From Escherichia coli (GTDB lineage Bacteria; Pseudomonadota; Gammaproteobacteria; Enterobacterales; Enterobacteriaceae): a stretch of 64,000 nucleotides of DNA. Position 1 is the first letter of the stretch. The number at the start of each line of letters is the position of its first letter. The notes under the pieces are model-generated. The model saw nothing but the letters and a program-made list of their open reading frames with translations. It was not told where the DNA came from and made no database searches. The position numbers were made by a program, and so were the translations under genes. Below are positions 29,807 through 49,635 of the stretch, in pieces. The stretch lies in the NCBI RefSeq assembly GCF_003790525.1, contig NZ_CP033635.1. One strand, given 5' to 3'.

Positions 29807-31042
29807 CTACTTATTCACCACCATCAAATGCGCCTGCATAATGTCGCTGGCCGGACGACCGTGCGCCAGCAAATCAGCCATTGCTTTAAGATATGGCGGT
29901 AGATGGCGGAAATAACGCTGATACCCGGCACACAAATAATTCAGCCCCGGTTTGCCGCTGGCATCGAGCATAAAGCGGTGTTTCGGGCAGCCTCCCCAAC
30001 ATGCTTTTAACACGTTACAACTGCGACACTGCGCTGGTAACTGCTTAAATTTATCTTCACCAAACACCTGCTGTTGCGGGGAATCTACCATTTCTGCAAT
30101 TGTCTGCTGAAGCATATTCCCCAGTCGATATTGCGAATAAACATAGTGATCGCAGGCGTAAACGTCGCCGTTGTGTTCAACAATCACCGAGCGCCCACAG
30201 GTTGGCTGATGATGGCAAACCGCTCCTGGCGCACCGACAAAATTGGCAAACGCCCATTCGATATTCATCACGAAAATCTTGCCGACGTCGCGTTTGATCC
30301 AGTGGTCGAATATCGCCACCAAAAATTCACCGAACTCATCGGGGCGTACCGACCATTCCGTCAGTTCGCCCTGAATATCGCCGGGAGCATGTAGCTTAAG
30401 TCCAGCATGAACAGCCGTTTCATCAGCCAGGCGTTCGACCACAGGAATAAACTGGATAAACTCAACGCCTGCATCACACAGAAAATCATAGACTTGCAAA
30501 GGTTGTAACGCACTGGTGCGATTTACGCAGACCAGCACGTTATAGTTGACATGATGTTTTTGCAGGAGCGTCAGGGCACGCATCACCAGCTTATGCGTTG
30601 GTCTGCCGCCTTTGGTCACGCGATATTGATTGTGGATCTCAGCCGGACCATCCAGCGATAACCCAACAAGAAAATGATTTTCTGCCAGAAATGCACACCA
30701 TTCGTCATCAAGCAGAACGCCGTTAGTCTGGAAGCTGTTACTTATCTTCCTGCCAGCACCATATTTCGCCTGTAGCGCCACGGCACGGCGGTAAAAATCC
30801 AGCCCGAGTAACGTTGGTTCGCCACCCTGCCAGGTAAAAGCCACTTCGTTTTGGGTTTCGCTGGCAGCGATATAGTGACGGACATACGCTTCCAGCGTGT
30901 CATCGTCCATATGCGTGACTGGCTTTTCGCGGTAAAGGGATTGTTTTTCGAGATAAAAACAGTAGTCACAGTTCAGATTACAATCGGAACCGCTCGGTTT
31001 CGCCATCACATGAAAAGCACGCGTTGGAACCTGTTGCAGCAT
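29807..31042 (-). CDS. aslB: Radical-SAM anaerobic sulfatase-maturating enzyme homologue AslB
   Basis: ORF 29807..31072 trimmed to MLQQVPTRAFHVMAKPSGSDCNLNCDYCFY (CxxxCxxC radical-SAM motif). Confidence 0.88.
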   Translation of the reverse strand: MLQQVPTRAFHVMAKPSGSDCNLNCDYCFYLEKQSLYREKPVTHMDDDTLEAYVRHYIAASETQNEVAFTWQGGEPTLLGLDFYRRAVALQAKYGAGRKISNSFQTNGVLLDDEWCAFLAENHFLVGLSLDGPAEIHNQYRVTKGGRPTHKLVMRALTLLQKHHVNYNVLVCVNRTSALQPLQVYDFLCDAGVEFIQFIPVVERLADETAVHAGLKLHAPGDIQGELTEWSVRPDEFGEFLVAIFDHWIKRDVGKIFVMNIEWAFANFVGAPGAVCHHQPTCGRSVIVEHNGDVYACDHYVYSQYRLGNMLQQTIAEMVDSPQQQVFGEDKFKQLPAQCRSCNVLKACWGGCPKHRFMLDASGKPGLNYLCAGYQRYFRHLPPYLKAMADLLAHGRPASDIMQAHLMVVNK

Positions 31043-31153
31043 GGTCGCTCCTTGCCTGAAGTCATCCTTCAATAAGTTAAGGGCGAAATCATACCGTGGC
31101 GCAATGCGTTATTACGGGCGTTTATTGCGAAGGGAAAGTGACGAAATGCACAG

Positions 31154-31180
31154 AAAACAAAAAACCCCGCCGAAGCGGGG
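31154..31180 (-). terminator. Rho-independent terminator of the tRNA operon
   Basis: Minus strand: ccccgcttcggcgggg hairpin followed by TTTTTTGTTTT, just 3' of tRNA-Pro. Confidence 0.7.
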
Positions 31181-31188
31181 TTCAAAAT

Positions 31189-31265
31189 TGGTCGGCGAGA
31201 GAGGATTCGAACCTCCGACCCACTGGTCCCAAACCAGTTGCGCTACCAAGCTGCGCTACTCGCCG
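31189..31265 (-). tRNA. proM: tRNA-Pro (anticodon UGG)
   Basis: Minus strand CGGCGAGTAGCGCAGCTTGGTAGCGCAACTGGTTTGGGACCAGTGGGTCGGAGGTTCGAATCCTCTCTCGCCGACCA; cloverleaf with anticodon TGG and encoded CCA. Confidence 0.95.
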
Positions 31266-31307
31266 AAATACTGCTTTTTGAATTTTTAGTTCAATTCTTT
31301 AAAGTCG

Positions 31308-31394
31308 TGGTGCGAGGGGGGGGACTTGAACCCCCACGTCCGTAAGGACACTAACACCTGAAGCTAGCGCGTCTACCAATTCCGCCACCTTCGC
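31308..31394 (-). tRNA. leuT: tRNA-Leu (anticodon CAG)
   Basis: Minus strand GCGAAGGTGGCGGAATTGGTAGACGCGCTAGCTTCAGGTGTTAG...CTCGCACCA; long variable arm, anticodon CAG. Confidence 0.95.
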
Positions 31395-31414
31395 ATTGTC
31401 ACAACTTCTAATAA

Positions 31415-31491
31415 TGGGGTGGCTAATGGGATTCGAACCCACGACAACTGGAATCACAATCCAGGGCTCTACCAACTGAGCTATAGCCACC
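31415..31491 (-). tRNA. hisR: tRNA-His (anticodon GUG)
   Basis: Minus strand GGTGGCTATAGCTCAGTTGGTAGAGCCCTGGATTGTGATTCCAG...GCCACCCCA; includes the extra 5' G typical of tRNA-His. Confidence 0.95.
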
Positions 31492-31548
31492 ACTACAAAT
31501 CTTGTTACGCGGTATTACTACCACCGCAGCTCAAGCGCCGGGACTAAA

Positions 31549-31625
<77 letters not shown>

Positions 31626-31727
31626 TTAGCGCCGTTGCGGGGGTGGATAATACGGACTTCCCACCCCTCTGTCTAGTCCCTTTTTAAATAAATTGCGCGT
31701 TTGGTTACGGTTTGTGCGTTTTGCTGC

Positions 31728-33113
31728 TTATTCCTCCAGTTTATGCGCTTTACCGTGGCGATTAAGCCCAAAAATTTTATAAATCGCCGTCACCGCCAGC
31801 ATAAAGATGATGCCGACAAACAGCGACATACGCGTATCTTCATTAAAGTACATGCCGATCAAAACGCAAATCAGGAATGCCATTGTTACGTAGTTGGCCC
31901 ACGGGAACAGGATTGAGCGGAACGGATGGCTGGCAATCGCCGCTTTATGCGCACGACGAAAACGCAGCTGGCTTATCAATATCACAAACCATGGCACCAT
32001 CCCCGGAAGCACGCTGGCACTGTAGACGTAGACAAACACACGCTGCGGATTGGGAATGATGTAGTTCAGGCATGAGCCAATTAACAGGATAGCAATAGAT
32101 ACTGCCACACCCGCAACCGGTACGCCGTGACGGGAAACTTTCGCCATTGCCGCCGGTAACTGACGGTTTTTCGCCAGTGCGTAGAGCATACGTCCGCAAC
32201 TGTACATGCCGCTGTTACAGCCAGAGAGCGCAGCCGTCAGCACCACAAAGTTGATAATACCCGCCGCTGCGGTAATGCCGATTTTGGCGAAAGTCAGTAC
32301 GAACGGGCTGCCGTTGCTGCCTATTTCATTCCACGGGAAGATGGTGACGATAACGAAAATCGCGCCTACGTAGAAAATCAGGATTCGCCACAGCACCTTG
32401 CCTACGGCACTGCGCAGCGTCACCTGCGGATTCTTCGCTTCACCGGCAGTAATGCCAATCAGCTCCACGCCCTGGTAGGACGCCACCACAATACACAGCG
32501 CGGTCAGGAACCCTTTCCAGCCCCCCGCAAAGAAACCGCCATGCTCTGTGAGATTGCTAAAACCAATCGACTGCCCGCCATTGCCAAAGCCAAAGAAAAT
32601 CACGCCCAGGCCAATGACAATCATCACGATAATCGTGGTGACTTTGATCATCGCAAACCAGAACTCGATTTCGCCGTACAACCGCACCGCCGCCAGATTC
32701 GCCAATGCTACCAGCGCCACCGCGATCAATGCCGGTATCCATTGCGCCATCTCCGGGAACCAGAACTGGACATAAACGCCAATGGCGGTGATTTCTGAGA
32801 TCCCCACCGCCATCCACATAAACCAGTAAGACCAGGCGGTGAGATAGCCAAAAAACGGGCTCATATAACGATGCGCATAAACGGCGAACGAACCGGTAAC
32901 AGGTTCGAGGAACAACATTTCGCCCATTGAACGCATGATGAAAAAGACGAATAGCCCGGCGATGATATAGGCCAACAATACGGATGGCCCGGCCCATTTC
33001 AGGGTACTGGCGGCCCCCATAAACAGGCCGACGCCAATGGTGCCCCCCAGGGCGATGAGTTCGATATGTCGAGCCTCCAGCCCACGCTGTAGCTCTGGTT
33101 TGTTATCTGCCAT
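31728..33113 (-). CDS. yifK: APC-family amino acid permease YifK
   Basis: 461-aa polytopic membrane protein [31 protein letters not shown]. Confidence 0.9.
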
Positions 33114-33303
33114 AAATCCTCGTGTTGTGTTTGCATGCTTTCCGGTGTTACCGGTTATCGTTATGGGTACATCGAGTGTTGCGAATGTTTTCGTAATTCA
33201 GGAGAAATGGCAAATAAAGCATTAAAAATTTGAATGCTTTGTGTAATAAAAAAGCAGGAAGGCGACGAAGTGACCACTCCGTCGCTTTACAAAGAGAGGA
33301 AAA

Positions 33304-34044
33304 TCAGAGGTTGCCGGTGTAGTGCCAGCGTAAATAACGCAGCAAACGAAGCTGACGCTTAATGCGGCTCGGCTGCGAAAGCAGGCGGTAGAGCCACTCC
33401 AGCCCCAGCGTTTGCCAGATTTTCGGTGCGCGTTTTACGTGACCGGTGAAAACATCGTAAGTCCCGCCAACGCCCATATACAGCGCATCCGGATGCACCA
33501 GACGGCAGTCGCGCATGAAGATCTCCTGCTTTGGCGATCCCATCGCAACGGTGACGATTTGCGCTCCGCTGGCATGAATGCGTTCAAACAGCGCCTGACG
33601 CTGCTCGGGTTTAAAATAACCATCCTGACTGCCAACGATATTCACATTCCACTGGTTGCGCAGTTTAGCTTCAGTTTGCGCCAGCACTTCAGGTTTACCG
33701 CCCACAAGAAATACCGGCGTCCCTTCTTTGCCTGCGCGCGCCATCAGCTCTTCCCAGAGATCGGCCCCGGCAACGCGGGAAACCTGCGCCTGCGGGTACT
33801 TTTTACGTACTGAACGTACAACGCTGATGCCATCCGCATATTTAAATTCGGCAGCGTTAATTAACTCCCTGACCTCAGCATTATCTTCAATGGTCAGCAT
33901 TTTTTCAGCATTAATGGCAACCAGCGTTCCCTGCTTAAGCTGCCCGTCAGCGAACAGATAATCGAGGGCGTGCTGCATATCACGCCAACCGATCAACTGT
34001 AAGCCACGCAGCGTATAGGTCGGTGCCGTGGTGTTGTTATTCAT
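33304..34044 (-). CDS. wecG: UDP-N-acetyl-D-mannosaminuronic acid transferase (ECA biosynthesis)
   Basis: 246-aa ORF at the end of the enterobacterial common antigen (ECA) cluster. Confidence 0.9.
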
Positions 34045-34046
34045 TG

Positions 34047-35399
34047 TTATCCTTCAACCTGCGTCCGGAGCGATGATTTTGTTCGTTTATGAATGAGTCC
34101 GGCGCTTTCAAAAAGCCAGTACAACAGTTTTGCGATCATCAGACATGCGCCGAAGACCACGATAAAAAAGACCACGCGTGAGACAAACGAATCCAGCCCT
34201 TCACGCGCCAGCACGATCATATTGAAGATCGCCCCGAAGCAGAAACTGTGCAATATCGCAGCCTTATAGCGATTAGTCTCGCGGTTGCCCAGCTCATACA
34301 GCCAGTCGAACCATTTGATGATCAGTCCAACAACAATCGCCCCGAGCGGGATGAACAACGCGCCGCCCATCACCACCAGTGAGCCTATAAGCGTAGGCGA
34401 GATCGCCAGTCCGGAGTGGTTATTCAGCACTTCCCAGGTAAAGTAGTTGGCGGAGTTCAGTACCATACTCGGGCGACCCGGCCACAGCCAGGAAGGGATA
34501 AAGACATAGAAATCGCGGACAATGGGAGCCAGGCCCTGGAAGTCGATGTTGTCGTAGTTCTGCAGCAGCAATGCCAGATTCTCCCACGGCGAAAAGGTAT
34601 CGCGGGTGAGATAGAGAAACGTATAGAACGCTTCATCACCGCTCACATTCATTCCATAGCGTTTTAGCGCCAGCCAGAACATGCCCACAATCCCCAGCAC
34701 GCCCGCCGCCGCCAGCATCCACAACGAAATCCAGCCGCGAATAATGCCAATAAACAGGAAGATAGCGAATGCGATGATGATATTGGCGCGAGTGCCGCCG
34801 ACAATCATATAAGTCAGCAAGCCAAAAGCGACCGTGCTGACGAGGAAAAACAGCCACGCTTTGCTGTCCTGGCGCAGAAAGTAGACCACCAGCATCGCCG
34901 GGATGAAAAAGTAAAAGAAGCGTTTTAATGCCACGCCGGAGACTTCGCTGGAAAAGATCTGACTGTAAGAATTAAGCCGGAACAGCAAAAAGCCGTTGTG
35001 CATGAAGAAGATGCCGACGCTCACCAGCGCGATGCCCATCAGGATCACCCACGTGAGATTGGTCTCCACGCGGTTCATGGTAAACAGCGGACGGCGCGGT
35101 GCATCAGCAACGCGTTTGCGTAGACGGGTTTTGTAGGTGACATAGTAAACCGCGTAGAAGCAGCCTGCAGAAAGCAACGCCTGCAACAAGATTTCTGGCG
35201 GCGCGACACCAACATCAAAGCGAAATACCAGCACGCTGGTCAGCGGAAAGCCGAAGAAAAAGGTGAGCAAAAACAGCAATGAAAAGAAGACATTGAAGTT
35301 AAAGCGCACACGGCGAAACTCAAACCAGGTCAGCGTGGCAATAAACAGCGTGCAGAGCAGCCAGACAACAAAAAGGCCACTGAATTGCAGCAGACTCAT
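34047..35399 (-). CDS. wzyE: ECA polysaccharide polymerase
   Basis: 450-aa polytopic membrane protein; 2 nt upstream of wecG. Confidence 0.9.
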
Positions 35400-36475
35400 G
35401 CGACCTCCCCGGTGGCAATCGCCAACGCCCGCTGCCAGCCTTGTAGATAGTTAGGGCTAAAGAAGGCAATGGTGTTTTTATCCACCGACGCCAGCTGGCG
35501 CTGCGCTTCACGCACAATATCCTCGTTGAGATCGTCGGTAGTAAACAGCACCGGCAAATGTTGTTCCGTCATATCCTGCCAGAACGGATTTTCCCGGTTA
35601 AGCACACAAGGAATGCCCGCCTGAATCAGTAAGCACAGCGTACCAATGCCCTGCTGGCGGGCAAAAATAAAGTAACCAAGATCGCACTGACGAAGTAGCG
35701 TCAGATAGGCGTCAAATTCCAGTTTTTCGCTCAGAACTTGCAGATTTTCTTCGCTGAATAACTCCAGCCCCGCCTGACGAACTTCCTCGATGTACGCTTC
35801 GTTATTAGGCGGATATCCCATCGGCACCACCACTTTTACCGTATCGCCAAATTGCTGATGAACGGCGCGCAAGGCAGCAATATGCTCATTGCTGCGGTCG
35901 CCGGAGTTGCCCACCAGAATGGTCATTTTTCCTTCACGTTGCCGATCGTTCGCCATCGTATTGAGAGAAGGATCCATCCGCGTCGGGAAGTACAGCAGTT
36001 CGCCCCGCACCTTTGGGTGCGTTTTGGCAAAAAAGCTCAAATCACCGCGGGTGGCAAATACACAGCCGACTCGCTTTTGCGCCAGGCGACGTAGTGGGTA
36101 AAAAAGCTTATATCTCAAGCCACTGGAAAGCTCGTACAGGTCTGCCCCCCAGATATGCCAGTAAAACTGGCTGGGCTTAATACCACCACTCAGCAGAGCC
36201 AGCCACAGTGTGGGATTGAACTGACCGTGGAAAAAAAAACGCTGCTGACGGTTAGCTTTTGCTTTCGCGATGACCGCTTCCGCCAGCGATTTTTTCCCAG
36301 GGAAAAATTGCACAGAAAGCGTCGGACAGCTATCACTTAAACCGTCGTCCTTGCCAACAACCATAAACTCGCGCGCGTGCTCGCTCGTCGCGGCCAGCGC
36401 GTCATTGAAAAACCGCAAAACGGTTCGGTTATGGTGAGGGATATCCGATCCCAGTACGTGAATCAGTACAGTCAT
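35396..36475 (-). CDS. wecF: TDP-Fuc4NAc:lipid II Fuc4NAc transferase
   Basis: 359-aa ORF; 4-nt overlaps with both neighbours. Confidence 0.9.
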
Positions 36476-37722
36476 GCCCGCCTACGCCAGAGTAAAAACA
36501 CGCCACAACAAAGAGAAAAATAGACGATATAGGTTGCCATATAGGCCTGCGCCGCGCCCAGTGCACCATGCGCAGGGATTAGCCAGTGGGAAAATACCAT
36601 CAATAAAGTGAACTGGCTGACTTCCGCCAGAATATAAAACCGCAGTGACGCTTTGGCGATCACCAGATAACCAAAGACATAAGCGCCCACTTTTAACACA
36701 TCACCTACCAACTGCCAGGCAAAGAGATCGCGCATAGCGGTAAATTTATTCGACAACAGCAGCCAGATAGCAAAATCACGCAGCAACCAGACGGAAAAAC
36801 TCGCCGCCGCCACTGCCGGTAAGACGAATTTCAGCGATTTAACCACTTCCCGGGTGATATCGCGCTTTTCCGTTAGCCGCGACAACGTGGGCAGCAAATA
36901 TACGCTGAACGATGCCGTAATAAATTGCAGGTAGGCATCGGAAATACTGCTCACCCCTTGCCAGATCCCCACTTCATCCCAGCTATACTGCGCCGCCAGC
37001 AGTTTACGCATCATGATGTAAGCAACAGGCAAGGTTACCGACGTAATCAACGCCATGAGCGTAAATTTGCTCAACTGCCCTGCCAGGCCGTTATCCCAGC
37101 TGGGTTTCAGATAGCTTAACGGGATTGCACCACGCTTAATTAGCATGATGACGGCAGGAATCACCACCAGCGCGGGAATCAACGCCAGCCCCAGCAACGC
37201 CCCTTCATAACCGCCCAAACGGTAACTGACGTAGTACGCAAGAACGCCAATCAGGCTGCCGACAATCAGGGATAACGCATTACCTGCGGCATCGCGAAAG
37301 CCTTTCATCAACGCCAGTAACAGGTTGCCCCAGGCGATCCCCATTTGCACCAACGCCACTAAACGCACCAGCCCCTGATAGTCGGTATTACCGAACAATC
37401 CCTGGCTGATTGGCGCAGCTGCCAGCACAAAAACCAGCGCCATTAGCATAGAGAAGCCAAGTACCATCGCTGATGAAGTGCCGACCACGCGGCGCAATTG
37501 TTGGGGATTATCATGGTACTGGGCAACGTATTTGGTTACGCCGTTAAAGATGCCTGCCCCGGCAAGCACGCCGAGCACGGTAATCAACTGGCGGAAATTT
37601 GCCGCCAGCCCAAGCCCCGCCGGACCAAATGACACTGCCAGCAACTTACCGACCAGTAACCCGGCACCAATCTTGACCAGTGTACTGGCCGCCGTCCACA
37701 AGGACGCTTTTGCCAACGACAT
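36472..37722 (-). CDS. wzxE: ECA lipid III flippase (Wzx family)
   Basis: 416-aa polytopic membrane protein. Confidence 0.9.
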
Positions 37723-37723
37723 A

Positions 37724-38854
37724 TCAGGAGAAGTAGTTCAACAAGGTCGCAATTACCGTACGCTGATTGACGGGCGACAGGTTGTAGAACAACGGCAGGC
37801 GCAGCAGGCGCTCGCTCTCTTTGGTGGTGTAGCGATCTTCACCGTGGAACTCACCAAAGCGCTCCCCCGCAGGGCAACCGTGCAGCGGAATGTAATGGAA
37901 CACCGCCATGATTTCCGCTTCTTTCAGAAAGTTAATCAACGCGCTCCGGTCATCAATATCCCGCAGTTTAATGTAGAACATATGCGCGTTCTGCACGCAG
38001 CCATCGGGAATCGACGGCAGCTCGATACGCCCGGCTTTCGCCAGAGGCGCTAACGCATCGTAGTAGTTTTGCCACAGCGCCAGACGCTGCTGATTGATAC
38101 GTTCAGCGGCTTCCAGTTGCGCCCAAAGGTACGCTGCTTGCAGATCGGACATCAAATAGCTGGAGCCAATATCGCGCCAGGTATATTTATCGACCTGACC
38201 ACGGAAGAACTGGCTGCGGTTTGTGCCTTTTTCACGGATGATCTCGGCTCGTTCGATCAACGCTTTATCGTTAATCAGCGTCGCGCCGCCTTCACCGCCC
38301 GCCGTGTAGTTTTTGGTTTCATGGAAGCTAAAGCAGCCAATATGACCAATGGTTCCCAGTGCACGCCCTTTGTAAGTGGACATCACGCCCTGAGCGGCAT
38401 CTTCCACCACAAATAGATTATGCTTCTTCGCCAACGCCATAATAGTGTCCATTTCGCAGGCCACACCCGCGTAATGAACCGGCACGATAACGCGCGTTTT
38501 GTCGGTGATCGCCGCTTCAATCAGCGTTTCGTCGATGTTCATGGTGTCCGGGCGAACATCCACAAAAACGATTTTTGCGCCACGCAGCACAAAGGCATTG
38601 GCGGTGGAGACAAAGGTGTAGCTCGGCATGATCACTTCATCGCCAGGCTGGATATCGAGCAGCAGCGCCGCCATCTCCAGCGAAGCGGTGCAGGATGGCG
38701 TCAGTAACACTTTGGCGCTGCCAAAACGTTGCTCCAGCCACTGCTGGCAGCGACGGGTAAAACCACCATCGCCGCACAGTTTGCCGCTACCCATTGCCGA
38801 CTGCATATAGTCGAGTTCGGTTCCCACCACCGGCGGTGCGTTAAATGGAATCAT
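37724..38854 (-). CDS. wecE: dTDP-4-amino-4,6-dideoxygalactose transaminase (DegT/PLP-dependent)
   Basis: 376-aa ORF with aminotransferase features. Confidence 0.92.
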   Translation of the reverse strand: MIPFNAPPVVGTELDYMQSAMGSGKLCGDGGFTRRCQQWLEQRFGSAKVLLTPSCTASLEMAALLLDIQPGDEVIMPSYTFVSTANAFVLRGAKIVFVDVRPDTMNIDETLIEAAITDKTRVIVPVHYAGVACEMDTIMALAKKHNLFVVEDAAQGVMSTYKGRALGTIGHIGCFSFHETKNYTAGGEGGATLINDKALIERAEIIREKGTNRSQFFRGQVDKYTWRDIGSSYLMSDLQAAYLWAQLEAAERINQQRLALWQNYYDALAPLAKAGRIELPSIPDGCVQNAHMFYIKLRDIDDRSALINFLKEAEIMAVFHYIPLHGCPAGERFGEFHGEDRYTTKESERLLRLPLFYNLSPVNQRTVIATLLNYFS

Positions 38855-38858
38855 GTGA

Positions 38859-39533
38859 TCACCTGTATAACCAGTACGTGGTGCTTTCTACATTCGCACC
38901 ACTTTGTATGTATCGTTTAAGCGCGGCGGTGTTGCCCATCTGGGTCGCCACCCGCAAAGTTGTTTTACCGCGAGCATACGCCCAGTTTAGCGCCGTTTGC
39001 ATTAGCTCAGCACCTGCACCGCGTCCAGCCAGCAGGCCAATTCGCGCATCTGTCGCATTGAGTTCCCGTAAAGAGACATAACCGCGAATATCGCCGGACG
39101 CCGCACGTAAAATCAGACATTGATGATCAAAGGTGCCGCGCACGGCATTTTCAATCCACTGTGCATAAAAGCGACCGCTGGCGTCAGGCGCATACCACGG
39201 CGCACGAAAACGGCTTTGCGCAAATGCGGCGCTGGCTAACTGACGTAATGCGGGAATATCGGTCTCTTGTGCCACTACTGCACCGCTATCACTGACATTG
39301 TTCACGGGTAGTGCCAAATCAACTTCACCTTCTACCAGGGAGAATCCCAGCTGTTGCAGGGCATCCAGTTCACCCGTATTTGATGCCGCAATTTTGGCCT
39401 GCACCCGTGACCACGGCGCTAACGCGTCTGGCGTCAGGAGCGGTGCTTCAGACGTAATGCGCACGATGGCGCTGTTAACACCAAAGAAGGCGTTTTCCCA
39501 GGTTAGTGGCTCAATACTGGCGCGGACGGGCAC
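38859..39533 (-). CDS. wecD: dTDP-fucosamine acetyltransferase (GNAT)
   Basis: 224-aa ORF; its 5' end overlaps the rffH 3' end by 23 nt. Confidence 0.85.
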
Positions 39534-40392
39534 GAAGTAACTCCAGCAGATATTGGCCGTAGCCAGTTTTCGCTAATGAACTGGCAGCACGCTTCACACC
39601 CTCGTCATCGAGCCAGCCGTTACGCCAGGCAATCTCTTCCAGGCAGGCAATCTTAAAGCCCTGGCGTTTTTCCACCGTCTGTACAAAGGTGCTGGCTTCA
39701 ATCAGGCTGTCGTGAGTGCCAGTGTCCAGCCAGGCAAATCCGCGCCCAAGCAGTTCAACGGTCAGGTTGCCCGCCTCGAGGTACATCTGGTTGATGGAGG
39801 TAATCTCCAGCTCACCCCGCTCCGACGGCTTCACCTGCTTTGCGTACTCCACGACTTTACTGTCGTAGAAATAAAGCCCGGTCACCGCCCAGTTTGATTT
39901 CGGCTGTTTTGGTTTTTCTTCCAGCGAGATAGCGCGGAAATTGTCGTCAAACTCCACGACGCCAAAGCGTTCCGGGTCCATCACCTGATAGCCAAATACC
40001 GTCGCCCCTTCCGTGCGCGCCGCAACATGACGCAGCTTCGGACTGAAGCCCTGTCCGAAGAAAATGTTATCGCCCAGCACCAGACAAGAAGGTTCACCGT
40101 TGAGGAAAGTTTCACCGATGATAAAGGCCTGCGCCAGACCGTCCGGGCTGGGCTGTTCGGCATATTCCAGCTGGATACCGAACTCACTACCATCGCCCAG
40201 CAGGCGCTGGAAATAACCTTTATCTTCCGGCGTAGTGATGATGAGAATTTCGCGGATACCGGCCAACATCAGCACCGACAGCGGATAGTAAATCATTGGC
40301 TTATCGTAAATCGGCAACAGTTGCTTCGATACGCCGCGCGTAATCGGATGCAATCGGGTGCCGGAACCGCCCGCCAGGATAATACCTTTCAT
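39511..40392 (-). CDS. rffH: Glucose-1-phosphate thymidylyltransferase 2
   Basis: 293-aa [42 protein letters not shown] (nucleotidyltransferase G-rich loop). Confidence 0.92.
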
Positions 40393-40410
40393 GTTTGCCT
40401 CCGCTGAAAA

Positions 40411-41478
40411 TTAGCCTTTCAGACCTAAACGCTCGCCCTGATAGCTGCCGTCCTGCACCTGCTTCCACCAGCTTTCATTAGCCAGATACCACTGCACCGT
40501 TTTACGCATTCCACTTTCAAAGGTTTCCTGCGGCAGCCAGCCAAGTTCACGGGCAATTTTCGAAGCATCAATGGCATAACGCAGATCATGCCCCGGACGG
40601 TCAGCGACAAAGGTGATCAGGTCACGATAGTGCGCCACGCCGTGCGGCTTGTTCGGAGCCAGTTCTTCCAGCAGCTCGCAAATGGTTTCCACAACATCGA
40701 GATTCTTACGCTCGTTGTGACCACCAATATTATAGGTTTCACCGACTTTCCCGGTGGTCGCCACGCAATACAGCGCGCGGGCGTGATCTTCAACATACAG
40801 CCAGTCACGGATTTGCTGCCCGTTGCCATATACCGGCAGCGGTTTACCCGCCAGCGCGTTGAGGATCATCAGCGGGATCAGTTTTTCCGGAAAGTGGTAA
40901 GGGCCGTAGTTATTCGAGCAGTTGGTGATAAGCGTCGGCAGACCATAGGTCCGCAGCCAGGCGCGTACCAGATGGTCACTGCTGGCTTTTGAAGCGGAAT
41001 AAGGGCTGCTCGGCGCATACGGCGTGGTTTCGGTGAAGAAATCATCCGTCGAGTGCAGGTCACCATATACTTCGTCGGTGGAGATATGATGAAAACGGAA
41101 CGCTGATTTTTTATCTTCCGTCAGCGCATTCCAGTAAGTCCGCGCCGCTTCAAGCAATGTATAAGTCCCGACAATGTTGGTTTCAATAAACGCTGCCGGG
41201 CCGTCAATAGAACGGTCAACATGGCTTTCGGCTGCCAGATGCATGACACAGTCTGGCTGATGCTCAGTGAATACGCGCGCCAGTTCTGCCCGATCGCAGA
41301 TATCAACTTTCTCAAAGGCAAAGCGCTCGCTTTGCGCGACCGGTGCCAGCGACATCAGATTTCCGGCGTAGGTCAGCTTATCGACCACTACCACCGCGTC
41401 GCTCGTTTCGTTGATGATATAACGCACCAGCGCCGAGCCAATAAACCCGGCACCACCTGTTATCAGAATCTTTCTCAT
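40411..41478 (-). CDS. rffG: dTDP-glucose 4,6-dehydratase 2
   Basis: ORF trimmed to [20 protein letters not shown] (Rossmann GxxGxxG), 355 aa. Confidence 0.92.
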
Positions 41479-42740
41479 CAGCGCCAAACTCCTTTGGCAT
41501 CGACGACATACTGCTGATGGACATTGTCGCCATTGATAACTTTGAACTGACTATGATCGACCAGCATCACCAGCACGTCTGCCGTTGCCAGCGCCTCGTC
41601 AAGCTGCGCCAGAGTACAAAGCCCGGTCAGTTTTTTCGGCAACTGGTGGATGTTAGGCTCAACAACCAGCGTTTCGCCGCTATGCCACTGGGCGAGCAGT
41701 TCAGCGATTTCCATCGCCGGGCTTTCGCGCAGGTCATCAATATTCGGTTTAAACGCCAGACCAAAGCAGGCGATTTTCAGTTCACTGGCGCGTTTATCGG
41801 TAGCAGCAAGGCAGTCGGCAACCGCCGCTTTCACCTGATCGATAACCCAGAACGGTTTGTGATCGTTCACTTCGCGCGCGGTACGGATAAGCCGCGCCTG
41901 CTGCGGGTTCTGTGCCACGATAAACCACGGATCAACAGCAATGCAGTGACCGCCCACGCCAGGACCAGGCTGAAGAATATTAACGCGAGGGTGACGATTC
42001 GCCAGGCGAATCAGTTCCCAGACGTTAATTCCCTGATCGGCACAAATCAGCGACAGTTCGTTAGCAAAAGCGATATTCACATCGCGGAAGCTGTTTTCGG
42101 TGAGCTTACACATTTCCGCCGTCCGCGAGTTAGTGACGACACACTCACCTTCGAGGAAAATTTTGTACAGTTCGCTGGCGCGGGCCGAACAAACCGGCGT
42201 CATACCACCAATCACGCGATCGTTTTTAATCAGCTCGACCATAACCTGGCCCGGTAACACGCGTTCCGGACAGTAAGCAATGTTGACGTCCGCCAACTCG
42301 CCCACCTGCTGTGGGAAAGTGAGATCTGGACGCATCTCTGCTAACCATTCTGCCATCTTCTCGGTTGACCCCACCGGCGAGGTGGATTCAAGGATCACCA
42401 GCGCGCCTTTTTTCAGCACTGGCGCAATGGAGCGAGCAGCCGATTCAACGTAGGTCATATCTGGCTCATGATCGCCTTTAAACGGCGTGGGTACAGCAAT
42501 CAGCCAGGCATCCGCTTCAACTGGCGTCGTGCTCGCTCGTAAAAAACCGCCTTCTACGGCAGTTTTTACTACGCTCGCCAAATCAGGTTCGACGATATGG
42601 ATTTCGCCACGATTGATGGTATCAACCGCGTGTTGGTTGATATCGACACCAATCACCTGTTTTTGCCTTGAGGCAAACGCAGCTGCTGTAGGCAGCCCGA
42701 TGTAACCCAGTCCGATAACAGAAATGGTCGCAAAACTCAT
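41478..42740 (-). CDS. wecC: UDP-N-acetyl-D-mannosamine dehydrogenase
   Basis: 420-aa [26 protein letters not shown] (NAD-binding). Confidence 0.92.
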
Positions 42741-43867
42741 AGTGATATCCGATTATTTTTTAACGCTTCCAGAATGCGAGAGCATGCCTGACCATCACCA
42801 TACGGGTTATGGGCGCGGCTCATAGCTTGATATTCGTTTTCGTCTTTTAAAAGACGCGTCACTTCCTCGACAATTCGCTGCTTATCCGTGCCGACCAGAC
42901 GCACCGTCCCCGCTGTCACCGCTTCCGGACGCTCAGTGGTATCGCGCATCACCAGCACCGGTTTCCCCAGCGAAGGCGCTTCTTCCTGAATGCCGCCTGA
43001 GTCGGTCAAAATCAGCCAGGCGTGGTTCATCAGCCAGACAAACGGTAAATACTCCTGGGGATCGATCAGAATGACATTTTTCACATGCCCCAGAATGCGA
43101 TTGACCGGCTCTCTGACGTTCGGGTTGAGATGCACCGGATAGACAATCTGGATGTCCTGGTGCGTGGTGGCGATGTCTGCCAGCGCCTGGCAGATTTCTT
43201 CAAAGCCACGACCGAAGCTCTCACGCCTGTGACCGGTCACCAGAATCATCTTTTTATCGGGGTCGATAAACGGGTAATTTGCCGCCAGTTCTGAACGCAG
43301 CGTGTCGCTGCTCATCACCTGGTCACGCACCCATAACAGTGCATCGATGACAGTATTACCGGTAATGAAGATTCGGCTGTCAGCAACGTTTTCACGCAGC
43401 AAGTTTTGCCGGGAAGTTTCGGTTGGAGAGAAGTGATACATCGCCAGATGCCCGGTCAATGTACGGTTAGCCTCTTCCGGCCACGGCGAATAGAGATCGC
43501 CCGTGCGCAGACCTGCCTCAACGTGACCAACTGGAATACGCTGATAAAACGCCGCCAGGCTGGTTGCCAGCGTCGTCGTAGTATCGCCGTGAACCAGCAC
43601 GACATCTGGTTTGAACTCGGCAAGAATTGGTTTTAGCCCTTCCAGAATCCGACAGGTTATCTCTGTCAGGCCCTGTCCTGGCTGCATTATGTTGAGATCG
43701 TAGTCAGGTACAATGGAAAAGAGTTTCAGCACCTGATCGAGCATCTCCCGATGCTGCGCAGTGACGCAAACTTTAGCCTCAAAAAAAGGATCTTTTGCCA
43801 ACGCATGCACCAACGGAGCCATCTTGATGGCTTCCGGGCGCGTACCAAATACAGTCAGTACTTTCAC
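42737..43867 (-). CDS. wecB: UDP-N-acetylglucosamine 2-epimerase
   Basis: ORF 42737..43912 trimmed to a GTG start giving [19 protein letters not shown] (376 aa). Confidence 0.9.
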
Positions 43868-43922
43868 ATCGATTCTCTTCGAATAAGCGGCGAGCGCCTT
43901 TGCGCTCACCACAGCAGTGTTG

Positions 43923-44969
43923 CTATTTCGAGCAACGGCGGGTTAATGCGACACCAGCCCCGATCAGTCCCCCGACAATGCCCCACATAATCATCAGGAA
44001 GGCACGACGTGGGCTATCGCGTTTTACCGGTTCTTCCGGCGTACGCAAATAGCGATAGGTCTGAAAACGCGGATCCAGGGTTGGACCAACATTCAGGGTG
44101 TTTAACATGGCCCGATTCTGATCATAGTCGAGATCAAAGGCCGGACCGACGGCCTGTAAATTTTCCAGTCGAGCCTGGAGCATTGGACGCCCAAGCAGGA
44201 ACATTTCTGAATCAGGTAGTTCCTCGGCAGGCACATCTGTCGCACTGCGCGAAATATTATGCTGCTCAGCAATTTTCAGCGCCTGTTCAATACTGTTCAT
44301 CCGGCGATCGTAGATAGCTTTCGCCACCTCTTCCTGACGCTTCACCTGAGCTTTCATCTGGATGGTGCGTGCCGCCCATGCGCCTTTCAGCTCATCATTC
44401 AGATGGCTGGCTGCACGCTGGCTGGCAAAAGCAACATACTGACGTAACAGGTTATTAGCGTCAGGCGCAGTTTCGGCAATCAGCTTCACGCTGTCATTGA
44501 CCGCGCGGGTGAAGTCACCGGGAATAAACACGATGTTGTTGATCATTTCATCCAGCAACGCCGCATCGGCTTTGCTATTGCCCACCATCCGCTGTTTGTA
44601 ATAGTCGGTTTGCAGCCAGAACTCTCTGCGGGTATCCCACGAGGCCAGTTGCATAACAAACTCTTTATAGGCTTCGTCCATGACCGATGGTTGGTCGGCA
44701 GAAGCCATGTTTGAACGGACATCGAGGTTACGCAAAAATTGCTGCTGCGAGTAATATCCCCCCAGCATATTCACCGTTGGACGATCGGTAATCGCCGTTG
44801 CGCTCCACTCCTGTCGAGCAAAAAAAGTATACGCCAGCGCGATTAACGCAAACGCCAGCCCCATGCCAATAATCCACAGCTTCCCAGCCCACAAGGTACG
44901 AAACAACCCACGAATATCCAGTTCATTTTCAGCGTCTTCGGCCGGTTTCCCAGGCATTGGTTGTGTCAT
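43923..44969 (-). CDS. wzzE: ECA chain-length regulator (polysaccharide co-polymerase)
   Basis: 348-aa ORF with N- and C-terminal TM segments flanking a periplasmic domain. Confidence 0.88.
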
Positions 44970-44980
44970 CACATCCTCAT

Positions 44981-46084
44981 TTATTTGGTTAAATTGGGGC
45001 TGCCACCACGATTTCTACGCAGTCTGCGTTTTACGCGCTTAATAAAGCGAGCAACTTTCCAGGCACGCTTGATGCAATATCCATAGAGGAAGAATGCTAG
45101 CAAAAAGAGCACCAGCATGACCCACTCCGGGACAAAATGAGAATATTCTGCCAGCACGCCAATGGAAGCGAGCAGTGCTGCGGCAAGGGTAATCAGCACA
45201 AACGCCTGGCGGGAAGTAAACCCGGCACGCATGATCAAATGGTGAATATGCTGACGGTCAGGAGAGAATGGGCTCATGCCTTTACGCAGGCGACGGTACA
45301 TAATCGCCACCATATCCATTAGTGGAATGGCGATTATCCATAATGCAGTAACCGGGCTTATTGGGTGCGTTTTTCCCTGAGTCGTTTCGAGCAGGATCCA
45401 GATAACGGTAAAACCAATCAGCGTACTGCCCGCATCCCCCATAAAGACTTTGTAGCGGCGACCCAGGATACCAAGGTTAAGCATGATGTATGGCAGGATA
45501 GCGGCGATCATCGCAAAGCACCAGATTGCGAGACTGGTTTGCCCGTCGAACCACAAAATCATACCGATTGCTGCAAACGAGACGCAGGACAACCCGCCCA
45601 GCAAGCCATCAATGCCATCAACCATGTTGAACGCATTAATGGCCGCCCAGACGGCAAATAGCGTCAGGAAGTAACCAAACGGTCCGAGCACCATCTCCCA
45701 GGAGCCAAAGATATAACCCAGGCTACTGAGATAAAGTTTGCCGAACACCATCATAACAATGCCAACAGCGGCCTGTATGGTGGCACGGATTTTTACGCTG
45801 ATATCAAAACGGTCATCCAGCGCGCCAATGAAAACAAGCACACCAGCACAAGCGAGATAGAGAGATGCATGCGGAATATAGTAATCGACAATTCCGAACG
45901 TGAAGCAAATCCCTGCGTAAACCGAAATCCCCCCAACGAGAGGTATCAATCCCTGGTGACGTTTGCGGAAGTTTGGTTTATCCACTAAACCGACTTTTTT
46001 TGCCACCTTACGGGCAAAAAACAGAAACAGTGTCGTGAATAAAAAAATACTGATGAGATCAGTACTCACTGTCAGTAAATTCAC
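44981..46084 (-). CDS. wecA: UDP-GlcNAc:undecaprenyl-phosphate GlcNAc-1-phosphate transferase
   Basis: 367-aa polytopic membrane protein; first gene of the ECA cluster. Confidence 0.92.
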   Translation of the reverse strand: MNLLTVSTDLISIFLFTTLFLFFARKVAKKVGLVDKPNFRKRHQGLIPLVGGISVYAGICFTFGIVDYYIPHASLYLACAGVLVFIGALDDRFDISVKIRATIQAAVGIVMMVFGKLYLSSLGYIFGSWEMVLGPFGYFLTLFAVWAAINAFNMVDGIDGLLGGLSCVSFAAIGMILWFDGQTSLAIWCFAMIAAILPYIMLNLGILGRRYKVFMGDAGSTLIGFTVIWILLETTQGKTHPISPVTALWIIAIPLMDMVAIMYRRLRKGMSPFSPDRQHIHHLIMRAGFTSRQAFVLITLAAALLASIGVLAEYSHFVPEWVMLVLFLLAFFLYGYCIKRAWKVARFIKRVKRRLRRNRGGSPNLTK

Positions 46085-46270
46085 AATGCATGCTCTCAGA
46101 GAAAATTATTAGCAGAAGTATAACCACGAAGACCTTTATTCAGAAGGGAAAGTCCGTTCCGAACCCACCAGCCCTGTGCAAAAATTAACCATTTGATATG
46201 CAAATTGCATAACACACCAGCAAATTCCAGGAATTTTCCTAGCATCGCCAGCGCGGCATTAAGATTACAG

Positions 46271-46309
46271 ATATAAAAGCAAAACGCCACGTAAACACGT
46301 GGCGTTTTT
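46271..46309 (-). terminator. Rho-independent terminator downstream of rho
   Basis: Hairpin aacgccacgt-aaac-acgtggcgtt flanked by T-runs on both strands. Confidence 0.65.
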
Positions 46310-46323
46310 GGCATAAAACAAAT

Positions 46324-47583
46324 TTATGAGCGTTTCATCATTTCGAAGAAATCGTCATTGGTCTTGGTCATTGCCAGTTTATTAATGAGGAATTCCATTG
46401 CATCGATTTCGCCCATCGGGTGAATGATTTTGCGCAGGATCCACATTTTCTGCAGTTCTTCCTGAGTCGTGAGCAGCTCTTCTTTACGGGTACCGGAACG
46501 GTTGTAGTCGATAGCCGGGAAGACGCGTTTTTCAGCGATCTTACGAGAGAGGTGCAGTTCCATGTTGCCTGTACCTTTAAACTCTTCGTAGATAACTTCG
46601 TCCATCTTGGAACCGGTATCGATAAGCGCGGTAGCGATGATGGTCAGGCTGCCGCCCTCTTCCACGTTACGCGCCGCACCAAAGAAGCGTTTCGGACGAT
46701 GCAGAGCATTGGCATCCACACCACCGGTCAACACTTTACCTGACGCCGGAACAACGGTGTTGTAAGCGCGCGCCAGACGAGTGATGGAGTCGAGCAGAAT
46801 GATAACGTCTTTCTTGTGCTCAACCAGGCGTTTGGCCTTCTCGATCACCATTTCCGCAACCTGAACGTGGCGAGATGCGGGTTCGTCAAAGGTAGAAGCA
46901 ACAACTTCACCTTTAACCAGACGCTGCATCTCGGTGACTTCTTCCGGACGTTCGTCGATCAGCAGAACCATCAGTACGCAATCCGGGTGGTTGTAAGCAA
47001 TGCTCTGAGCAATGTTCTGCAGCAGCATGGTTTTACCGGCTTTCGGCGGTGCCACAATCAGACCACGCTGACCACGACCGATAGGTGATGCCAGATCCAG
47101 TACGCGAGCGGTTAAATCTTCCGTAGAACCGTTACCACGTTCCATACGCAGACGAGAGTTTGCGTGCAGCGGGGTTAAGTTCTCAAAGAGGATTTTGTTG
47201 CGGGCGTTTTCAGGTTTGTCGAAGTTAACTTCGTTAACTTTCAGCAGCGCAAAATAGCGTTCACCTTCTTTCGGCGGGCGAATCTTACCAGAGATGGTAT
47301 CACCAGTGCGGAGGTTGAAACGGCGGATTTGGCTAGGGGAAACGTAGATGTCATCAGGACCGGCGAGGTAGGAGCTGTCTGCGGAACGGAGGAAACCAAA
47401 TCCATCCTGCAATATCTCCAGTACGCCATCACCAAAGATATCTTCGCCACTCTTTGCGTGCTGCTTCAGGATGGCAAAAATAATGTCCTGCTTACGCATA
47501 CGAGCCAGGTTTTCCAGCCCCATATTTTCGCCGAGAGTGATCAGCTCAGAAACCGGCGTATTCTTTAATTCGGTAAGATTCAT
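46324..47583 (-). CDS. rho: Transcription termination factor Rho
   Basis: ORF 46324..47655 trimmed to [25 protein letters not shown] (419 aa); Walker A PPKAGKT. Confidence 0.95.
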
Positions 47584-47667
47584 AGTGGTGTGAGTTCTTA
47601 AACTTGGGGTAAATCTCGAACTTAATGTTGTGAATGGTATGGCAGGATCATCCATGCCTGTTTACGG

Positions 47668-47769
47668 TCATCGACTCATGTCTTTTCGCTGTCTGGTCAC
47701 AGGAGAGTACGCAGAACTGAAACGACAAGACGGATTGAGTGACGAGCCAGAAATCTGTTCACTTCGCAT
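47668..47769 (-). CDS. rhoL: rho operon leader peptide
   Basis: 33-codon minus-strand ORF ATGCGAAGTGAACAG... translating to MRSEQISGSSLNPSCRFSSAYSPVTRQRKDMSR, upstream of rho; too short for the ORF track. Confidence 0.8.
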   Translation of the reverse strand: MRSEQISGSSLNPSCRFSSAYSPVTRQRKDMSR

Positions 47770-47909
47770 TTAAGATAAAACGGGAAGCGTTGGAAATTAC
47801 AAGATTCAAACTTAATAAGGTATGTTTAATACGAAGTCAACACTAAGTTAGCATGACTCACGCCGGGCGTCCAGTTTTTAGCGACGGGGCACCCGAACAT
47901 GAAATTCCC

Positions 47910-48239
47910 TTACGCCAGGTTAGCGTCGAGGAACTCTTTCAACTGACCTTTAGACAGTGCGCCCACTTTGGTTGCCGCCACTTCACCGTTTTTGAACAGC
48001 AGCAGAGTCGGGATACCACGGATGCCATATTTCGGCGCAGTGCCAGGGTTTTGATCGATGTTCAGTTTTGCAACGGTCAGTTTGCCCTGATATTCGTCAG
48101 CGATTTCATCCAGAATCGGGGCGATCATTTTGCACGGACCGCACCACTCTGCCCAGAAATCAACGAGGATCGCCCCGTCCGCTTTGAGTACATCCGTGTC
48201 AAAACTGTCGTCAGTCAGGTGAATAATTTTATCGCTCAT
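47910..48239 (-). CDS. trxA: Thioredoxin 1
   Basis: ORF trimmed to [37 protein letters not shown] (109 aa, active site CGPC). Confidence 0.95.
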
Positions 48240-48369
48240 ATATAACTCCACAGGAATAAGCCTGGCGTGTTGGTTTCGTTGTTGGTGTAACATTAACCAA
48301 CTAAAGGTTGACTTTATTTCACCGGATACGCTTTCGTAAAGCAATAGTAAGCTGATATTCTACCACACT

Positions 48370-49635
48370 ATGAGCAAAACACATTTAACAGAACAGAAGT
48401 TTTCCGACTTCGCCCTGCATCCGAAGGTTGTAGAAGCCCTTGAAAAAAAAGGGTTTCATAACTGTACGCCCATTCAGGCACTGGCCCTTCCGCTGACGCT
48501 GGCGGGTCGTGACGTAGCCGGGCAGGCGCAAACCGGTACCGGGAAAACGATGGCGTTTCTTACGTCAACGTTTCATTATCTTCTCTCTCATCCTGCGATA
48601 GCCGATCGCAAGGTGAATCAACCGCGTGCCTTAATTATGGCACCGACGCGTGAACTTGCCGTGCAGATCCACGCCGACGCGGAGCCACTTGCGCAAGCTA
48701 CCGGCCTGAAGCTGGGTCTGGCTTACGGTGGTGATGGCTACGACAAACAGCTGAAAGTGCTGGAAAGCGGCGTTGACATTCTGATTGGCACCACGGGGCG
48801 TTTAATTGACTACGCCAAGCAGAACCACATTAACCTCGGTGCCATTCAGGTAGTGGTACTGGACGAAGCCGATCGTATGTACGATCTGGGCTTTATTAAA
48901 GATATCCGCTGGCTGTTCCGCCGTATGCCGCCTGCAAACCAGCGCCTCAACATGCTGTTCTCCGCCACGCTTTCGTACCGGGTACGTGAACTAGCGTTCG
49001 AGCAGATGAACAATGCCGAATATATTGAAGTGGAACCGGAACAGAAAACGGGCCACCGTATTAAAGAAGAGCTTTTCTACCCTTCTAACGAAGAAAAAAT
49101 GCGTTTGCTGCAAACGCTGATCGAAGAAGAGTGGCCAGACAGAGCGATTATTTTCGCCAACACCAAACACCGTTGTGAAGAGATCTGGGGCCACCTGGCG
49201 GCAGATGGTCATCGTGTCGGTTTGTTGACAGGCGATGTCGCGCAGAAAAAACGTCTGCGTATTCTTGATGAATTTACCCGTGGGGATCTGGATATTCTGG
49301 TTGCCACCGACGTTGCCGCGCGTGGTTTGCATATTCCGGCAGTGACGCACGTCTTTAACTACGATTTACCCGATGACTGTGAAGATTACGTTCACCGTAT
49401 TGGTCGTACAGGTCGCGCAGGCGCAAGCGGTCACTCTATCAGCCTGGCCTGTGAAGAGTATGCATTGAATTTGCCTGCTATTGAGACCTATATTGGTCAC
49501 TCAATTCCGGTAAGTAAATACAATCCGGACGCATTGATGACCGATCTGCCAAAACCGCTGCGCCTCACGCGCCCGCGCACAGGCAATGGTCCGCGTCGTA
49601 CTGGCGCTCCGCGTAATCGTCGTCGTTCAGGTTAA
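48370..49635 (+). CDS. rhlB: ATP-dependent RNA helicase RhlB (degradosome component)
   Basis: 421-aa ORF with DEAD-box motifs ([15 protein letters not shown]) and an Arg-rich C-terminus. Confidence 0.93.

Follow-up and report, generated by a model that had tools for sequence, protein, structure and literature searches.

The wec operon and its gene content

Here we describe the wec (rfe-rff) operon for enterobacterial common antigen (ECA), which lies on the minus strand at positions 33304-46084 of the window, i.e., of the whole 64,000-nucleotide (nt) stretch of Escherichia coli contig NZ_CP033635.1 that was analysed. Twelve co-oriented genes follow one another from the wecA start at 46084 to the wecG end at 33304, in the order wecA, wzzE, wecB, wecC, rffG, rffH, wecD, wecE, wzxE, wecF, wzyE, wecG. 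They are flanked by rho on one side and by thrP (yifK) and the argX-hisR-leuT-proM tRNA genes on the other, a layout that is the same in the annotations of E. coli SMS-3-5 and K-12, with the four tRNAs confirmed by Rfam. The operon is 100% identical to that of SMS-3-5 (NC_010498.1), in which RefSeq annotates the same 12 genes—naming four of them rfbA (= rffH), rffC (= wecD), rffA (= wecE), and rffT (= wecF)—and flags none of the 12 as a pseudogene. The initial annotation of this DNA had placed 12 co-oriented genes, wecA to wecG, at exactly these coordinates and had considered the cluster complete, core, and intact. Our analysis confirms that this is an ordinary complete ECA operon, which is core, intact, and already known.

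Several lines of evidence carry this conclusion. First, alignment to the wec operon of K-12 MG1655 (3,967,916-3,980,696; b3784-b3794 and b4481) extends over 12,781 nt with 0 gaps and 249 mismatches (98.1% identity). The two operons share their genes, gene order, gene lengths, and all eleven junction spacings and differ only by these 249 point changes, which are mostly synonymous (17 synonymous and 0 nonsynonymous in wecA, 29 and 2 in wzyE) and amount to 0-7 amino-acid differences per protein. Second, each of the 12 open reading frames (ORFs) has a start codon, a single stop that is terminal, and a length that is a multiple of 3 and equal to that of its K-12 counterpart. Third, all 12 proteins score well above the curated cut-off of NCBIfam equivalog or exception models that cover all or nearly all of their length. 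Fourth, of 5426 complete E. coli genomes, 5425 contain the cluster by megablast; the full-length matches listed, including rows sampled evenly along the ranking, each measure exactly 12,781 nt, and the sole match with less than 80% coverage is interrupted by the start of its record. Comparison with a reference ECA cluster had been proposed as the check on intactness, and neither the K-12 alignment nor the ORFs and model matches revealed any rearrangement, insertion, indel, frameshift, or pseudogene. Since the genes, their order, and their functions are textbook material, confirming an intact core envelope-glycan operon matters little in itself. The gain is a modest and comparative one, consisting of a conserved stop/start geometry, a twelve-gene form that is not universal, and a hairpin that covaries and lies just ahead of a mapped RNA 3' end.

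The pathway roles of the wec proteins have been described in a review on ECA (PMC12212991). The operon is expected to build the trisaccharide repeat of ECA—N-acetylglucosamine (GlcNAc), N-acetylmannosaminuronic acid (ManNAcA), and 4-acetamido-4,6-dideoxygalactose (Fuc4NAc)—on undecaprenyl phosphate, and the repeat would then be flipped, polymerised, and length-regulated by products of the same operon. The first gene, wecA (rfe; 44981-46084; TIGR02380, 575 bits), encodes the uridine diphosphate (UDP)-GlcNAc:undecaprenyl-phosphate GlcNAc-1-phosphate transferase, begins with GTG behind a weak Shine-Dalgarno sequence, and has 0 amino-acid differences from K-12. The start of wzzE, for the ECA chain-length co-polymerase (43923-44969; NF008645, 693 bits), lies 11 nt past the wecA stop with a GAGGA Shine-Dalgarno in front. 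It is followed by wecB, for the UDP-GlcNAc 2-epimerase (42737-43867; TIGR00236, 620 bits), which again has a GTG start and a weak Shine-Dalgarno, and by wecC, for the UDP-N-acetylmannosamine dehydrogenase (41478-42740; NF008286, 857 bits). Next come two genes of deoxythymidine diphosphate (dTDP)-sugar synthesis: rffG, for the dTDP-glucose 4,6-dehydratase (40411-41478; NF007582, 832 bits), with a strong AAGGAG Shine-Dalgarno, and rffH, for the glucose-1-phosphate thymidylyltransferase (39511-40392; TIGR01207, 534 bits), which the Prokaryotic Genome Annotation Pipeline names rfbA and for which PDB 1MC3 spans the full length. The dTDP-fucosamine acetyltransferase gene wecD (rffC; 38859-39533) encodes 224 residues from a GTG at 39533, and NF008212 matches residues 1-224. 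The remaining genes are wecE (rffA; 37724-38854; TIGR02379, 737 bits), for the dTDP-4-keto-6-deoxyglucose transaminase, wzxE, for the lipid III flippase (36472-37722; NF011679, 807 bits), wecF (rffT; 35396-36475; NF002752, 857 bits), for the Fuc4NAc transferase, wzyE, for the ECA polymerase (34047-35399; NF002820, 869 bits), with a strong GGGAGG Shine-Dalgarno and an anti-Shine-Dalgarno duplex of -11.7 kcal/mol, and wecG (rffM; 33304-34044; NF002980, 445 bits), for the ManNAcA transferase.

Junction spacings and probable translational coupling

Five of the eleven junctions are overlaps. Three are of 4 nt with the sequence ATGA (-4; wecB>wecC, wzxE>wecF, and wecF>wzyE), which makes precise an earlier statement that such overlaps occur at several junctions; wecC>rffG overlaps by 1 nt (-1, TGATG), and rffH>wecD by 23 nt (-23). 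The other junctions are spaced by +1 nt (wecE>wzxE), +2 nt (wzyE>wecG), +4 nt (wecD>wecE), +11 nt (wecA>wzzE), +18 nt (rffG>rffH), and +55 nt (wzzE>wecB). We compared these spacings with those in 80 loci retrieved via WecE, 55 of which are from Enterobacterales or close relatives with wec genes, by placing all twelve E. coli proteins on the loci and picking start codons by homology. Gene order is colinear in 55/55 loci. Taking starts nearest to the aligned E. coli N-terminus, a procedure that favours the same geometry where N-termini are conserved, the three -4 overlaps are kept in 83-89% of the loci (44/53 for wecB/wecC, 48/54 for wzxE/wecF, and 45/53 for wecF/wzyE), the -23 overlap in all 27 loci that have both genes, and the +1 spacing of wecE/wzxE in 43/54. 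The remaining junctions take two main forms, -4 (25/31) or -1 (5/31) for wecC/rffG and +4 (33/55) or -14 (11/55) for wecD/wecE. Because these spacings are kept while synonymous sites have strongly diverged, as seen in the flanks of the rffH/wecD junction where third-position column identity is 0.52-0.58, the geometry appears to be held by selection or strong constraint. At the wecC/rffG junction, the end of wecC in E. coli (41476-41481, minus strand) carries tandem in-frame TGA-TGA stops (cTGATGAga); most other genera have a sense codon in place of the first TGA, and the -1 overlap becomes the commoner -4.

The reading that we favour, with a probability of roughly 0.9, is that of a standard wec operon with inferred coupling at its tight junctions, de novo initiation at wecD, and an uncoupled wzzE>wecB junction with a stem-loop. 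Neither wecC nor wzxE has a Shine-Dalgarno, and for this reason translational coupling is, from junction geometry and Shine-Dalgarno content, a reasonable inference at the -4, -1, +1, and +2 junctions. The anti-Shine-Dalgarno duplex is -3.3 kcal/mol for wecC (cross-species median -3.8) and +0.4 kcal/mol for wzxE (median -1.9 across 55 species), and both genes overlap or adjoin the upstream stop codon. Ribosomes ending one cistron may therefore start the next by termination-reinitiation, most likely at wecB>wecC, wecC>rffG, wecE>wzxE, wzxE>wecF, wecF>wzyE, and wzyE>wecG, and this would matter most for the two genes without their own Shine-Dalgarno. There are precedents, since Huber et al. (PMC6728339) examined five native -4 pairs of E. 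coli and saw coupling in four. Those pairs (hyfHI, astDB, ydbH/ynbE, as well as menDH) resemble the wec junctions in having an ATGA stop/start overlap inside an operon and a variable Shine-Dalgarno inside the upstream gene, the difference being that their coupling was measured while that of the wec pairs is deduced.

A number of observations weigh against coupling and would suit the alternative that overlaps and abutments are neutral by-products of a compact operon whose cistrons are translated independently. The fifth native -4 pair, bioBF, was not coupled (PMC6728339), and a review (PMC12548453) attributes the abundance of -4 overlaps partly to ease of evolution, NTGA arising readily from a start codon. 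Usable Shine-Dalgarno sequences precede rffG, rffH, wzyE, wecF, and wecD, and the anti-Shine-Dalgarno duplex reaches -5.5 kcal/mol or stronger in 7 of the 11 downstream genes. No occlusion of the start sites is predicted: their accessibility (0.36-0.56) falls within the background range (0.41 +/- 0.12), which leaves a form of coupling based on RNA unfolding with no support. The published record is silent as well, in that literature searches on coupling in wec found no experiment or dedicated study, and the ECA review (PMC12212991) notes the genes only as an operon and does not contain the word "translational"; a second ECA paper notes polar insertions in wec. Finally, 5 overlaps among 11 junctions, which have P ~0.016 at the ~15% base rate for all co-directional pairs (PMC6728339), have P ~0.21 if a within-operon rate of 30% is assumed. 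The overlap count alone is thus unremarkable; it is the conservation of exact spacing across the 55 loci that is far beyond chance. We consider neutral compaction without functional coupling possible but unlikely, because exact spacings are kept in 83-100% of loci despite the divergence of third positions, and because wecC and wzxE lack a Shine-Dalgarno in essentially all species, which would make independent initiation inefficient.

The rffH/wecD overlap and the wzzE-wecB spacer

The 23-nt overlap between rffH and wecD (39511-39533, minus strand) is of a different kind from the -4 junctions. The segment, GTGCCCGTCCGCGCCAGTATTGA, is dual coding provided that the annotated GTG at 39533 is the WecD start; one frame specifies the RffH C-terminus RARPRQY-stop, and a second frame the WecD N-terminus VPVRASIE. 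This start, and hence the overlap, is well supported. The N-terminal peptide is conserved across species (M/V-P-V-R-A-S-I-E), the start codon being ATG in 18 and GTG in 9 of 27 species, and the crystallised protein (PDB 2FS5 and 2FT0) includes residues 2-224. Column identity is 0.90 in the overlap, compared with 0.74 in the flank coding for RffH only and 0.66 in that coding for WecD only, and all three codon phases of the overlap are conserved (0.86-0.97), as expected from two reading frames. Homology between RffH and RmlA stops at residue 286-287, just ahead of the overlap, which places the overlapped tail outside the conserved enzyme core. We therefore confirm the 23-nt overlap reported in the initial annotation, but not its listing alongside the -4 overlaps as coupling. 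In reporters, coupling declines with overlap length, and one series shows none at -25 nt (PMC12548453), which makes de novo initiation within rffH the more likely event at the -23 junction. Most likely, wecD would initiate there from its own GGAG Shine-Dalgarno (anti-Shine-Dalgarno duplex -5.9 kcal/mol), and the overlap, judged from these sequence properties, seems better described as a conserved dual-coding segment than as a coupling junction.

It is very improbable that WecD instead starts at an internal GTG, codon 44 (39404-39402), and that the overlap is an annotation artefact. In its favour, the older model TIGR02382 starts at residue 44, codon 44 is a GTG (confirmed in the window sequence only), and the annotated start is itself a GTG rather than an ATG. 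However, 18/27 species have ATG at position 1, with a conserved peptide after it, NF008212 and the crystallised protein span residues 1-224 and 2-224, respectively, and the overlap has the three-phase conservation expected from two reading frames. The start of TIGR02382 at residue 44 reflects an older, shorter WecD annotation, which we take to be the one of 181 amino acids. As for subtle damage to the cluster in this strain (a pseudogene, an insertion sequence, or a rearrangement), it can be set aside as practically excluded, with nothing found in its support and with an ungapped 12,781-nt K-12 alignment, 12 unchanged gene lengths, near-full-length equivalog matches above cut-off for 12/12 proteins, and no RefSeq pseudogene against it.

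The wzzE-wecB spacer (43868-43922, 55 nt) is the only long spacer inside the operon. It holds an 11-bp GC-rich hairpin (43887-43912, minus strand; dG -24 kcal/mol, z -4.3) whose sequence varies while its pairing is kept: among 22 Enterobacteriaceae, double compensatory changes are seen in 7 of the 8 consensus pairs. One of the 249 differences from K-12 falls in this hairpin, where a C-G pair of one version becomes a U-G pair. Like hairpins are found in the spacers of Yersiniaceae, Budviciaceae, Hafniaceae, and Morganella and are absent in Erwiniaceae, Rahnella, and Pectobacteriaceae, in which the spacer is short or unstructured. Term-seq in K-12 (Adams et al. 2021, PMC7815308, supplementary files 1 and 3) lists a "primary" wzzE RNA 3' end at 3,970,120, corresponding to window position 43880, 7 nt past the stem and 13 nt ahead of the wecB GTG. 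In the same data, the Rho score of this end is 1.37, which is not significant, its intrinsic terminator score is 2.88, below the threshold of 3.0, and read coverage is 176 upstream vs 130 downstream. The tract after the stem is only UUAUU, a consensus terminator scan did not call the hairpin, and no study devoted to a terminator in wec turned up in literature searches. From its covariation and position, the hairpin is probably either a leaky terminator or a stem-loop that protects 3' ends and stabilises mRNA, dividing the operon after wzzE. In the reading that we favour, wzzE>wecB is the single junction that is clearly uncoupled, and its stem-loop marks an RNA 3' end.

The GTG start is found in 51/51 species for wecA and 52/53 for wecB (loci L003-L057), and the Shine-Dalgarno of both genes is weak throughout (median about -2.9 kcal/mol); rffG, where present (31 species), starts with TTG in 18, with GTG in 7, and with ATG in 6 and has a strong Shine-Dalgarno. 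These conserved non-ATG starts suggest deliberately low initiation. It is tempting to view the 23-nt overlap, the hairpin, and the GTG starts together as a conserved device that sets expression rather than as mere compaction, which is a tentative idea and, in our estimation, a doubtful one. If true, the invariant overlap would fix a low WecD:RffH synthesis ratio, the hairpin would separate a wecA-wzzE module of the transcript from a wecB-wecG module with slight attenuation, and the weak GTG starts of wecA and wecB would restrict entry into a pathway in competition for undecaprenyl phosphate. At a practical level, the junction facts could guide the design of non-polar wec deletions or the tuning of ECA enzyme stoichiometry.

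Operon ends and related clusters

The operon is transcribed from promoters in the rho-wecA intergenic region (46085-46323, minus strand), where the intrinsic terminator of rho (46308-46281), detected by the terminator scan, comes first and the wec promoter region after it. Four transcription start sites, along with sites for PdeL and NsrR, have been published upstream of wecA, and a primary 3' end for rho maps to the same region (PMC7815308). That Term-seq dataset also contains, under two growth conditions, an ORF-internal RNA 3' end at K-12 3,967,945 (window 46055), 30 nt into wecA after the GTG, which may reflect premature termination or processing. A gSELEX (genomic systematic evolution of ligands by exponential enrichment) peak for RpoN is listed between rfe (wecA) and wzzE, and the wec operon is mentioned in a computational listing of riboswitch candidates. 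At the other extremity, a candidate operon end (33247-33284, minus strand), folded with RNAfold, consists of a 10-bp hairpin (33284-33261) beginning 20 nt past the wecG stop and a U6 run (33252-33247). The structure is kept in K-12, with G-C in place of one G-U pair, and it failed a strict terminator scan as the U run starts 8 nt after the stem.

The promoter scan returned 7 promoter-like sites vs 11.1 +/- 3.1 expected, giving no support for internal promoters, while the terminator scan returned 29 terminator-like sites vs 16 +/- 4.5 expected, which besides the rho terminator are weak intragenic hairpins. A search of positions 30500-49000 with Rfam at the gathering threshold gave no match inside the operon; its only hits were the four tRNAs and the 5' untranslated region thermometer of trxA (RF02773, 78.8 bits; 48210-48309, minus strand), located upstream of trxA. 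Two further ORFs were rejected as genes. The first, of 72 amino acids (46096-46314, minus strand), fills the rho-wecA spacer, runs across the hairpin of the rho terminator, has no family match, and shows 3 amino-acid changes vs K-12 within 219 nt. The second, of 246 amino acids (41517-42257, plus strand), is antisense within wecC and shows more than 10 amino-acid changes vs K-12, compared with 2 in WecC itself, the pattern of a shadow ORF.

The gene order called canonical in the initial annotation is indeed that of K-12, but it is not universal, since 27 of the 52 Enterobacterales loci that are fully covered lack rffH. All twelve genes are present in 25 loci, and the twelve-gene order is the form of Escherichia, Citrobacter, Yersinia, and Serratia. 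Both rffG and rffH are missing from 22 loci (L007, L009-L013, L015, L016, L018, L019, L022, L023, L027, L034, L039, L042-L044, L047, L048, L051, and L056) and rffH only from 5 (L017, L038, L040, L041, and L055). The resulting ten-gene clusters, found in Enterobacter, Cedecea, Erwinia, Rahnella, and others, retain the wecA-wzzE-wecB-wecC...wecD-wecE-wzxE-wecF-wzyE-wecG order and most of the -4 overlaps and differ in that wecC abuts wecD with a spacing that varies from -4 to +33; more generally, in loci without rffH, the gene ahead of wecD is wecC or rffG, and its distance from wecD varies. RffH and RffG are partly redundant with RmlA and RmlB (PMC12212991), which plausibly explains why their losses are tolerated.

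Some of the retrieved loci deserve separate mention. Spirabiliibacterium pneumoniae (L056) has a complete ten-gene wec cluster outside Enterobacterales, with tight junctions and 22-71% protein identity to E. coli; we take this genus to belong to the Pasteurellaceae. WecE homologues with 66-70% identity are found in Lachnospiraceae, Erysipelotrichaceae, Sulfurovum, Pseudoalteromonas, Colwellia, and others (L058-L082), most of them without a detectable match to other wec proteins; several of these, such as L059, L061, L066, and L081, also have relatives of rffG/rffH and weak WecF or WecD matches. These homologues probably belong to other dTDP-sugar glycan clusters. Lastly, in Morganella psychrotolerans wecF (L050:10883-11967) aligns only from residue 185, after a 556-nt gap, and in Enterobacter sp. 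R1 wzyE (L027:11956-13035) stops ~90 codons early; a frameshift, a pseudogene, or faulty assembly may lie behind either case.

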